From a phage: DNA of 47,066 nucleotides. This document shows, piece after piece, positions 27,001 to 30,000 of this stretch. Every line of letters begins with the position of its first letter. The first letter of the stretch is position 1. The stretch lies in sequence record OZ365185.1; one strand, written 5' to 3'. The position numbers were made by a program.

Positions 27001-30000
27001 TCCCGCATGAATCAGAATCGCCGTTGCCAGACGGTCGGAAATAATCCCCCGGCGTGCCCAGGTGCTGAAATGGCTCGCCCTGTCCTGTGACGTCCAGGTG
27101 GCTGAGCTGTCACGCCATTTCGAACCGTAATATCCGATACCCGGAATGTCCGGGTCTTCTTCCGGTTTGTTCGTCGGCACATTCACCCCGTTCTCATCCG
27201 TCATGAACGGTACGAAATGGATATTCTTTTCCGTTTTGTTTTTATAGCTGCCGTACACCGTCTGGTACGTGGATTCGTTCTTCTGCTTCCAGAAATACGT
27301 CGTGTCCCCGCATATCCAGGGAACACCACCAGCAGAGCCACCGACGCACTGGCCTGCCATATCCGCCAGGTCTGCACGGAATTTATCAACCAGCGCGCCA
27401 AACTGTGCGGCGTGATTTACCGGCGTACCGCCAAAATCAAATTCCCCCTGCATCCACACCACGGCAAACAGCACATTTTTCGGGTTCTTCTTCAGTGCTG
27501 CTTTTGTTCGACCGATAAGGTCCTTATACAGCGGCTTGTCCACACCCCAGCGGGTTGAATTCTCCGAGGCACCGCCAGCGTCACTGTATGTGCCATCAGC
27601 TCCGGTGGTGAACGCTGAACCACCACGACAGCACGGAACCAGCAGAATACCCGCATTCGCCGGTATAAACGGCAGCAGTTTTTTGGCGATATGCAGCCCC
27701 TGCCCCACGGTACCGTACTGCCCCTTTGACAGGTCCGCTTTCGGATGGTTAAGGCGGCTCATGTCCTGCACATCATGCAGACAATGGTCCGCCGGAATGA
27801 TGTCGTTATACTTACAGGCGGCACCGCCCGGTGTCACCGTACTGCGGCGCGCCAGCTGCTTAATACGCGGGTCCGGACGGTCATATGTCTCCGGCAGCGG
27901 AAGACCTTCACCATACGACATGCCGTTTGACTGCCCTGCCAGAGCCACAACAAAGTAATACTCCGGGTCGCTGGTGGCGCTGATTACTGCACCTTCTCCA
28001 CCTGTCGGCTTCACCACAACAGGTGTGCTCACATCACCTTCTGCGACAATCGCCTGAATAAGTGCTGCACCATCATCCGTATACGAAGAAAACGGCCCAC
28101 CGTATGGTTGCCATCCTTCACGAATTTTTTGCGCAAGTGCATCAGCAAGGTCTGACGGCGATGCCGCCCTGACCACATCGTAATGTTTAAATGTCATGAA
28201 TCCTCCCGGTCGGGATAATGTTGTTAGTCGGATAAGGAGCGGGCTGAAGTCCGGAAGTTACAGGACAATGACAGGAGGAAGACTACAGCCCGCAATACGA
28301 AAAAGGCCACGCAGTTGCGCAGAGTGATTACTGTCGGGTATTATTCGCCAGCTGAAATATTACTTCACGTTTTGTTGTTTATTCCTTGCCGCCCGCGTCT
28401 CCCGGCGCGGGCTTTTTTTTTTTTGCCCACAAGAAAGCCCCTCCGGAGAGGGGCTGATGTATGCGCTATGTACCGTTCATGCATGGTGCCGGGTGCCTCC
28501 CGGTGAGTTCAGTATCAGCACCTGAACCCGCACAGAAAGGATAGAGGTAAAACAGAAACACCTGTGACGCTGATATGCCCCGCCGCTCAGGGGGATTCAC
28601 CATGCAGGATTTTTTTTTTAACAAATTCTCAGTCGGGCAGACAACCTTCAACTGACTGAATTGTGACATTGATTACACTGTAACTACATTGCTGCACACC
28701 ACGAAACCAGCAATGCTTCTGATATTAATTAAACTGCACTTCAGCAAATCCTGAACCTGACGCACAGGTATTTGATTTGATTGTTACCGTCATTCCTGTT
28801 AACTGTGCGCTTTGCAGTAGCGGTTGCAGATTCCAGCGGTTAGTCCAGTACTCTTTCCCGGCCACTTTTACTGTGAATGTATCATTCTCATTATACTTAG
28901 AGAACTCAATTTTACCTTTTGCACAATCAGCTGCCATTGCATTAACAGAAACAAAAGCAAATAAAGCCGCTACAAATATCTTCTTCATATTTAACTCCTG
29001 TTATTCTCCGGATGTATTTAAAGAGTGGGCCCTGCGATTCAGAAAAGCAGCTGCGGTATTACTTTCCCATAAAGTATTGTTTATCCTTATAACTGGCCTG
29101 TCGCCAGTTATCTGACATTCTGGTTGTATCTCTTCATTCACGGCGCGAACGGAACGCGCCCCCTGATGATGGCAATTCAGTATAACCGCCACTGTGCCCA
29201 GTATCGCTGATATATTATTAAAGGATATTCGCCCCACTCTGACACCCCCCTCTCCCCGAAACTCCGGAAGCACATTGCTGATTCTCCCCCAGTTCAGTGT
29301 GAGGTCCACTTCTTCCGGTGTCATCGTATACACAGGAGCAGTTTCAGACAGTGCCTGACGAAATTCTCTCTGTATCTGCCTGAAGCGTAAGGCTTCTGCT
29401 GTGACAGTGACAAAACGCAGAACTGCTCTGGATGCATCTCTGGTCATTGTATTACCACTGAACTCCATTAACGCCAGATATGATGAAACCAGTGAGTGAC
29501 GACTGATTTGCATTCCGGAACGTTCCAGCGCTGCGACACGTTGCAGAGTGGTATAACTGCTGTCCGTTGTCATGGAAACCGTTGTCACACCGGGCACTGA
29601 TATATGTGTAAAATCTGAAAAACGGTAGAAAGTATTTGTTGCCGTATTAACGAACCCAGCCACATATAAATTATTTTGCTCAATAATCAGACGAAGATGG
29701 TCAAAACGCGCCTGATAGACATCAAGCCCTCGTATATCCACAGCAAAATAACTGCCCGGTGGGGTGTGGTTAATAACAGACACCGATGTGGTCCCCTGAG
29801 ATATATGTTCAAGAGGGGTCGATATCTCTGTCCGTATACTATTTAACGAAGAGACATAACTTTGTTGGGTCGAAAAGTCTATCATAAACTCCCGGGAATA
29901 GGATACCGAAGAAAAACCCAGTAACAGGCACAGTACCCATTTAAATAATATACACTTCATATACAGGTGTTCCTTTTGGCTGAAGTAATCAGCACCAGAC

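Follow-up and report, generated by a model that had tools for sequence, protein, structure and literature searches.

The spacer between the Shiga toxin (Stx) gene stx2B and the esterase gene nanS-p in the phage sequence OZ365185.1 (47,066 nucleotides (nt), analysed over its full length and called the window below) raises the question whether small regulatory RNAs (sRNAs) are produced at the 3' side of the toxin operon and, if so, to which families they belong. An earlier note, made from the sequence alone, had pointed to a pair of oppositely oriented terminator hairpins and a possible promoter in this spacer, and had proposed that a sense and an antisense sRNA end there, one at each terminator. 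This proposal fits the arrangement of a published convergent pair, and comparison with published Stx-phage sRNA coordinates, which the note had recommended, places both the EcOnc27/STnc100 position and the EcOnc08/21/42 peaks within the spacer. We estimate the probability at about 0.8 that the spacer encodes a convergent dyad of Hfq-binding sRNAs, consisting of an STnc100-type RNA in the toxin sense and an EcOnc08/21/42-type RNA in the antisense orientation.

The genes stx2A (29001..29960; 960 nt, upstream of stx2B in the late-operon sense; Pfam RIP), stx2B (28725..28988; Pfam SLT_beta) and nanS-p (26251..28197; 648 amino acids (aa); Pfam DUF1737, SASA and DUF6645), as delimited by gene calls, are all on the minus strand. 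Toxin-sense transcription thus runs from high to low coordinates, and in the spacer (28198..28724) a minus-strand hairpin is toxin-sense whereas a plus-strand hairpin is antisense. The spacer is 100% identical to that of Escherichia phage 1720a-02 (KF030445.1) from E. coli O174:H21, and the window is essentially that genome; in KF030445.1 an aph cassette stands in place of most of stx2AB, whereas in the window the toxin genes are intact. The stx2 operon (28725..29960, minus strand) is at most 94.4% identical to the full-length stx2a, stx2c and stx2d phage records in the searched collection. It encodes a B subunit of 87 aa and an A subunit with the C-terminal end ...NRRAHSLNTSGE, and we take this divergent operon to resemble subtype Stx2b. 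The elements that carry the argument are the following.

28391..28412, plus strand: terminator hairpin of the proposed antisense sRNA (terminator scan, fold)
28413..28424, plus strand: T12 tract, exactly twelve T, the U-tail of the proposed antisense sRNA
28455..28436, minus strand: terminator hairpin of the proposed sense sRNA (scan, fold, terminal stem of the Rfam model)
28425..28637, minus strand: putative STnc100-family sRNA gene in stx sense, with relatives EcOnc27/sRNA103, EcOnc05 and PasD (Rfam)
28350..28424, plus strand: predicted short antisense sRNA of the EcOnc08 type, about 71-75 nt (crosslinking peak; start site by analogy with the sRNA AsxR)

The plus-strand stem-loop, GCCCGCGTC-TCCC-GGCGCGGGC, has nine pairs, eight of them G-C, and the twelve T residues that had been described behind it are indeed there. 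The terminator RNA folds with -19.4 kcal/mol (z = -4.0), and none of 200 shuffled sequences was as stable. Across 10 variants 90.9% of the cells of the stem were paired, and two pairs were changed on both sides. A minus-strand hairpin is likewise present, AGCCCCTC-TCCG-GAGGGGCT, with eight pairs (six G-C) and a folding energy of -18.6 kcal/mol (z = -2.7), but it occupies 28455..28436 and not 28441..28470, and its tail, UUUCUUGUGGGC at 28435..28424, is moderately U-rich. As a T-run is found on one side only of each hairpin, each is a one-way terminator. The predicted 3' ends abut: the plus-strand RNA ends at 28424 and the minus-strand Rfam match at 28425. Terminator-like sites numbered 14 in the surrounding 6-kb region, compared to 5.5 ± 2.8 in shuffled sequences. 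Relatives of the plus-strand cassette were collected from IMG/VR with the pattern CTTCACGT-N(3-16)-TTCCTTGCC, which yielded 84 true loci; in genome contigs the same pattern was too loose, and the loci it returned all lacked the terminator, which marks them as chance matches. In the 84 homologues the T-run is T6-T8, which makes T12 an outlier. There are only two T-runs of nine or more in the whole window, and both are in the spacer (28413..28424 and 28610..28619).

The sense RNA is assigned by its match to the Rfam family STnc100 (RF02076) at 28425..28637, minus strand, which covers model positions 1-206 with 142.7 bits (E = 1e-31; gathering score 47), the minus-strand hairpin aligning with the terminal stem of the model. 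It lies on the late-operon strand with stx2B upstream and nanS-p downstream, the same placement as in the Sakai prophages Sp5 and Sp4. The full model is thus matched above threshold at the published Stx2-phage position. At the equivalent position VT2-Sakai has an STnc100 match of 207.7 bits; compared to that copy the window RNA scores lower, is divergent in its central region and contains A10 (the T10 of 28610..28619 read on the other strand) where Sakai has A7. The predicted RNA would be about 200-250 nt long and end at the hairpin 28455..28436, and its 5' end may be as much as about 40 nt upstream of the match.

For the Sakai counterpart EcOnc27, Hfq crosslinking and Northern bands of about 235 and 247 nt have been reported, the 247-nt form being destabilised in the absence of hfq (Tree et al. 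2014, PMC4104026); according to a review, sRNA103 is the EDL933 name of the same RNA. In a study of outer-membrane-vesicle RNA, STnc100 followed the stx2 operon at a distance of 75 nt (PMC12370729), and in a machine-learning study of O157 the strongest predictors of haemolytic uraemic syndrome fell in the spacer behind stx2B, over the predicted STnc100/EcOnc27 (PMC12711010). A recent preprint describes STnc100 as structurally related to PasD1 and PasD2, two sRNAs of enteropathogenic E. coli (EPEC). When PasA, PasD2 and the EcOnc52 peak were compared with the window by BLAST, no similarity was seen, so these names are not applicable by sequence to the window RNAs. The A10 tract is just upstream of the point where the 5' end of PasD2 (GCAUGGUGAAUCC) aligns. 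A complementarity of 11 nt to stxB has been published for STnc100 positions 5-15, but here it did not recur at the corresponding place; the best run between the sense RNA and stx2B, 11 nt with G-U pairs allowed (28556..28566 against stx2B position 216), is unremarkable.

The note had regarded the sense RNA as derived from the 3' untranslated region (UTR) of the stx transcript. That an sRNA of the STnc100 group is encoded here in stx sense holds, but its origin in the stx 3' UTR is not established, since members of the STnc100/EcOnc27/PasD group are also found without an upstream toxin gene, behind three tRNA genes in Sakai Sp4 and in PP2 of EPEC E2348/69.

The antisense RNA was placed by comparison with the Hfq-bound RNAs of strain Sakai. 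Sites that share 95-98% identity with segment 28321..28430 occur in 58 phage records and, among 5426 complete E. coli genomes, in about 1000; among these relatives are VT1-Sakai (Sp15) and other Stx1 phages, many Stx2a phages, EDL933 and Sakai Sp4. Three Hfq-bound 'homologues' on the antisense strand are listed in Table S2 of Tree et al. (PMC4104026): EcOnc08 (Sp4, 1179938..1180010), EcOnc21 (Sp4, 1180016..1180101) and EcOnc42 (Sp15). To these loci the window is 97-98% identical over a core of about 100 nt. By alignment projection, the Hfq-crosslinking (CRAC) peak of EcOnc08 falls on window positions 28345..28422, and the peaks of EcOnc21 and EcOnc42 on about 28254..28339. For these projections the published coordinates were found, by means of AsxR, to be offset by about +139 relative to NC_002695.2 at Sp5; the offset was taken as 0 at Sp4 on grounds of internal consistency and inferred to be about +135-140 at Sp15.

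Two further, independent comparisons fit these projections. The Northern probe used for EcOnc08/21/42 is complementary to the plus-strand RNA at 28311..28345 (32 of 35 matches). In EPEC, an sRNA candidate of about 182 nt named E2348C_1409.E2348C_1408.IGR (NC_011601, minus strand, 1444797..1444978) was described by Pearl Mizrahi et al. (2021, PMC8550237), and in their Table S6 it is equated with the enterohaemorrhagic E. coli homologues EcOnc08/EcOnc21/EcOnc42. Its locus in E2348/69 (PP6) aligns base for base with the window, and its estimated 3' end projects onto 28424. Like these homologues, the window RNA is antisense to the late operon, immediately upstream of a nanS-p-type esterase gene, and has the CCUUGCC seed, the terminator and a convergent STnc100-like partner. 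It differs from them in having T12 where they have T6-T8 and one extra C-G pair atop the stem, and its cassette is beside a divergent stx2 whereas EcOnc08/21/42 are beside stx1 or tRNA genes. Judged by these sequence comparisons, the antisense RNA is a member of the EcOnc08/21/42 family and not AsxR.

The pairing of such RNAs is not new. AsxR (EcOnc02), an antisense RNA 282 bp 3' of stx2AB, is convergent with EcOnc27, and convergent pairs like EcOnc02/EcOnc27 are present in seven other prophages (PMC4104026). The sRNA 'dyad' 3' of stx has thus already been published (PMC4104026; PMC7873438), and a review counts at least eight Sakai prophages with 'dyads of Hfq-binding sRNAs', calls the reasons for this 'unclear' and names EcOnc42 as an sRNA 3' of stx1 with no validated target.

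The antisense RNA has two possible starts, which correspond to the following features.

28315..28344, plus strand: promoter-like element P2, TTGCGC at 28315..28320, 18-nt spacer, TATTAT at 28339..28344 (conserved layout)
28238..28424, plus strand: predicted long antisense form, projected from the EPEC homologue (1444978..1444797, NC_011601)

P2 is the promoter of the earlier note; both hexamers are there and are conserved, about 12 nt downstream of the position given at the time (28303..28332). Its layout parallels that of AsxR, whose 5' end has been mapped as a primary start: upstream of the mapped start, the Sakai sequence reads TTGCGC, 18 nt, TAAAAT, 5 nt, +1, and the window reads TTGCGC, 18 nt, TATTAT, 5 nt and an A at 28350, which was set as +1 by this analogy. 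The -35 hexamer is inside a block common to both phages. The divergent homologues of S4, STLIN13, SK6988 and RM11911, whose spacers and flanks differ, still have TTGCnn and TAyTAT 18 nt apart; they also share the octamer CUUCACGU, the stem and the T-run and, except for SK6988, UUCCUUGCC. In IMG/VR, TTGCnn-18-TATTAT was found in 83 of the 84 loci, the remaining one having GATTAT at -10. Judging by this layout, it is plausible that P2 gives rise to a short primary transcript, about 72 nt long (28350..~28421), and this RNA may be the main antisense product in the window phage; it could equally be a processed 3' fragment of a longer RNA.

The published homologues are longer than the short antisense RNA that had been suggested; of that suggestion the antisense sRNA as such, of the EcOnc08/21/42 type, holds, and a short transcript made from P2 is plausible. 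EcOnc08/21/42 gave a Northern signal of about 271 nt in Sakai (PMC4104026), with a probe whose target coincides with P2 itself, and the approximately 182 nt of the EPEC RNA are an estimate from RNA-seq coverage (PMC8550237). Projection puts the EPEC 5' end at about 28238; E2348/69, Sp4, Sp5 and Sp15 share a TAAAAT five bases ahead of this point. For a 271-nt RNA ending at T12, which would start near 28154, no convincing promoter was seen by eye; the only plus-strand scan candidate near this position, ATGTCA-17-GATAAT at 28191..28219, would lead to an RNA of about 199 nt.

The presumed function of the antisense RNA depends on the sequence just in front of its terminator.

28384..28390, plus strand: CCUUGCC, a probable seed that directly adjoins the terminator stem on its 5' side (complement of the target motif)

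For the EPEC homologue a target motif GGCAAGG/GGCAGGG has been derived, and its binding site is directly 5' of the terminator (Fig. S5 of PMC8550237). In the portion of the published RIL-seq interaction list considered here, this RNA was always the 3' partner (RNA2) of the chimeras, with the 5' UTRs of cfa (767 chimeras) and dppA (197), with pcm (118), and with perA (30), tir (29), espC (26), the gene E2348C_3965 in the enterocyte-effacement locus (16) and emrA (15) (PMC8550237). The cfa leader of E2348/69 contains CGGCAAGGG, a 9-nt complement of 28383..28391 (-14.9 kcal/mol in an ungapped seed search). Upstream of the terminator in the window is a U/G-rich stretch, followed by the strong hairpin and the long U-tail, and the predicted short RNA also contains the invariant CUUCACGU at 28363..28370. 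Such an arrangement of U/G-rich tract, stable stem-loop and U-tail is the usual Hfq-binding module (cf. Ishikawa et al. 2012, a reference of PMC4104026). The antisense RNA is most likely a trans-acting Hfq sRNA, by analogy with its EPEC counterpart. Another EPEC RNA, annotated as the coding sequence E2348C_1013 (NC_011601, ~1060613..1060672, minus strand), converges with PasD1 and is the 3' partner in many chimeras, e.g. with the nlpD intergenic region (537) and the entC 5' UTR (263) (Table S3 of PMC8550237); it has the appearance of an antisense partner in a further dyad.

Taken together, these data would describe a tail-to-tail pair of Hfq-dependent sRNAs of the kind that lambdoid prophages have after the late promoter and its cargo genes and before the lysis cassette. 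In the lysogen each RNA would be transcribed from its own promoter to its own one-way terminator, and the two transcripts would abut without overlap. In lytic growth, Q-modified polymerase coming from pR' should continue past the sense-strand hairpins into nanS-p and the lysis genes S and R. Hfq would bind the antisense RNA at its U-rich stretch and poly-U tail, and the single-stranded CCUUGCC beside the terminator would pair with GGCAAGG-type sites in mRNAs of host and virulence genes (in EPEC the 5' UTRs of cfa and dppA, and pcm, tir and perA), as the identical seed region of the EPEC homologue and its RIL-seq partners suggest.

Several observations weigh against this interpretation. P2 agrees with the consensus in only 8 of 12 positions and, falling short of the promoter scan's threshold, is absent from its output. 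It is also inside the RNA species observed for the homologues (~182 and ~271 nt), so that its conservation could reflect the RNA and not a promoter. The upstream -10 hexamer at 28228..28233, ahead of the 5' end estimated for the long form, is TCGGAT and lacks the second-position A, whereas the homologues have TAAAAT (36 of 36 matchable IMG/VR loci); expression of the long form in the window phage is therefore uncertain. The U-tail of the sense terminator is poor (UUUCUUGUGG) despite the good hairpin. Whole-length RNAduplex gave pairing energies with the leaders of cfa and dppA that did not surpass those of a shuffled sRNA, and only the short seed match stands out. Finally, RIL-seq reports proximity on Hfq and not regulation, and no EcOnc42 target has been validated.

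A different role for the plus-strand transcript would be one in cis, in which its long form acts on nanS-p translation, on the stability of the late mRNA (RNase III) or by transcription interference. It is compatible with the trans-acting sRNA favoured above; by itself we consider it unlikely. The long form would be fully complementary to the structured nanS-p 5' UTR and to the late mRNA, the EcOnc21/42 peaks are in this part (about 28254..28339), the EPEC 5' end at about 28238 is 41 nt from the esterase start codon, and a nanS-p homologue is adjacent in 67 of the 84 IMG/VR loci. In S4, STLIN13 and RM11911, however, the cassette is present without a nanS-p leader, and because it exists without any esterase a cis role on nanS-p cannot be its conserved function. 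The RIL-seq partners in the considered portion of the list are all trans targets that contact the 3' seed, and it is the upstream -10, the one that would serve the long form, that is damaged in the window phage. Within the strongly conserved nanS-p 5' UTR an 8-nt inverted repeat, GCGGGCTG/CAGCCCGC (28239..28246 and 28286..28293), encloses about 40 nt; the S4-type homologue apparently lacks this 28239..28293 hairpin, the sequence on both sides being kept.

It is improbable that the hairpins are mainly transcription insulators in the lysogen, the sense ones shielding nanS-p and the lysis genes and the antisense one shielding stx, with the RNAs as by-products. Such a role would account for a strong antisense terminator facing stx and for two terminator-like hairpins in the sense direction before nanS-p, the one at 28455..28436 and a second one.

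28297..28322, minus strand: second small terminator-like hairpin (28322..28307) with U5 (terminator scan only)

The second hairpin is upstream of the nanS-p 5' UTR, in an inter-prophage block of about 95% conservation. A precedent for a termination by-product in the stx operon is StxS (EcOnc15), the pR'-tR' RNA, which likewise is an sRNA at the toxin locus that binds Hfq and, with the dyad, 'bookends' stx; it differs from the window RNAs in being located 5' of stx, in arising by premature termination of the late transcript and in having no sequence relationship to either of them. From mere insulators, however, one would not expect a conserved single-stranded seed, an invariant CUUCACGU, Hfq crosslinks or hundreds of specific RIL-seq chimeras, nor a sense RNA that belongs to a structured family of 206 positions.

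Identity of the plus-strand RNA with AsxR, the sponge of FnrS, is very improbable and was rejected on the results of Rfam and of the alignment. The slot and strand 3' of stx2B, the STnc100-type convergent partner, the TTGCGC -35 with its 18-nt spacer and the type of RNA (short, Hfq-type, with an intrinsic terminator) are all as in AsxR and AgvB. Yet neither AsxR (RF02703) nor AgvB (RF02702) gave a match in 28100..28800 even at E values up to 10, whereas in VT2-Sakai, where the geometry is the same, the AsxR model scored 88.1 bits and its match ended 1 nt from the STnc100 match. In the alignment of the window with Sakai the block of about 28324..28412 is replaced, while both flanks are well conserved, the nanS-p side being nearly identical. 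The replacement takes in the entire RNA body with its 5' region and terminator, including the 3' region of about 42 nt that AsxR and AgvB share (GUAUCUCAUGC..UUGCCCGAACCCAYUCGGGC, by pairwise alignment). The predicted length is also different, about 71-75 nt against 51-60 nt, and so is the kind of partner: AsxR and AgvB sponge the core sRNAs FnrS and GcvB, whereas in the considered part of its interaction list the EPEC homologue of the window RNA paired with mRNAs. HnrS (EcOnc10/11/12) was compared as well and is a different RNA.

The 39-aa protein annotated as hypothetical in the GenBank record KF030445 (window 28365..28484, minus strand; record 28366..28485) has an open reading frame (ORF) that is present here but is almost certainly spurious and leaves next to no chance that the locus is protein-coding, since it spans both terminator hairpins, its KKKK is the A12 tract, the T6/T7/T8 tracts of the homologues shift its frame and it has no Pfam match.

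Outside the spacer, three tRNA genes were found on the minus strand at 30052..30303, between a methyltransferase gene and stx2A. ARAGORN identifies them as Met-CAT, Arg-TCG and Arg-TCT; the CAT one is given as Ile in RefSeq for Sakai Sp4. Two further Rfam matches, both on the minus strand and above the gathering score, adjoin each other: C4 antisense RNA at 37694..37781 (82.3 bits) and the Hfq-binding RNA isrK at 37806..37882 (59.3 bits).

The EcOnc08/21/42-type dyad member is not tied to the toxin. A nanS-p homologue follows directly behind the sRNA on the other strand in the 67 IMG/VR loci mentioned above, and stx genes are present in only 6 of the 84, which indicates that the cassette is a feature of the lambdoid late-region cargo site; the Pas sRNA preprint came to the same conclusion for the neighbouring sRNAs. 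In S4 and STLIN13 it is directly beside the holin gene, without an esterase. In RM11911 a diverged cassette (L006 1201..1275) is located between the holin gene and a pair made up of a scabin-related ADP-ribosyltransferase and a subtilase-family AB5 B subunit, an arrangement which shows that the cassette also accompanies other toxin cargo.

Compared to AsxR phages, the antisense cassette of the window occupies the AsxR slot in such a way that the -35 hexamer and the spacing are kept while the -10, the RNA body and the terminator are swapped. A tentative generalisation, doubtful when taken jointly with the host pathways and the ~72-nt sRNA named below, is that the post-stx slot could be a site of cassette exchange, with a conserved block that ends in the shared TTGCGC -35 at its left, a second conserved block (the STnc100-type terminator) at its right and a swappable unit of '-10 + sRNA + terminator' between them. 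Under the same reservation, the interchangeable cassettes would include AsxR, AgvB, EcOnc03 and the EcOnc08 type. Just past the nanS-p stop codon (26251) there is a 12-bp hairpin with T6 on the plus strand, i.e. antisense (26216..26242, the T-run extending to about 26249). Its position and orientation are those of PasA/EcOnc52, BLAST found it without similarity to PasA, PasD2 or the EcOnc52 peak, and it may be another alternative sRNA cassette.

Both RNA families and the dyad architecture are already known: the families have been seen in experiments since 2014, the architecture has been reviewed, and for the EPEC homologue a list of interactions is available. The stx2B-nanS-p spacer thus contains no new kind of element, and the function of its antisense RNA is only partly charted. 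What is specific here is the combination, in a phage with a divergent stx2, of an EcOnc08-type cassette in the AsxR slot, a long T12 tract and a damaged upstream -10. The practical value is one of annotation, as the dyad is unannotated in the window phage and the GenBank record has a spurious ORF; T12 and the damaged -10 also make the phage a natural variant for separating the short from the long forms of EcOnc08/42. That a divergent-stx2 phage has the antisense RNA of the Stx1-phage/Sp4 type and not AsxR indicates that the sRNA content of the toxin locus varies between phage types. Regulatory RNAs flanking the Stx toxin locus tie prophage carriage to host physiology. If the cassette-exchange proposal is true, different Stx phages would connect different host pathways to the toxin locus: FnrS and haem uptake in the case of AsxR phages, and cfa, dppA, tir and perA, via the ~72-nt sRNA made from P2, in the case of EcOnc08-type phages such as that of the window. 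Which cassette is present could then account in part for how types of Stx phage differ in virulence or fitness.

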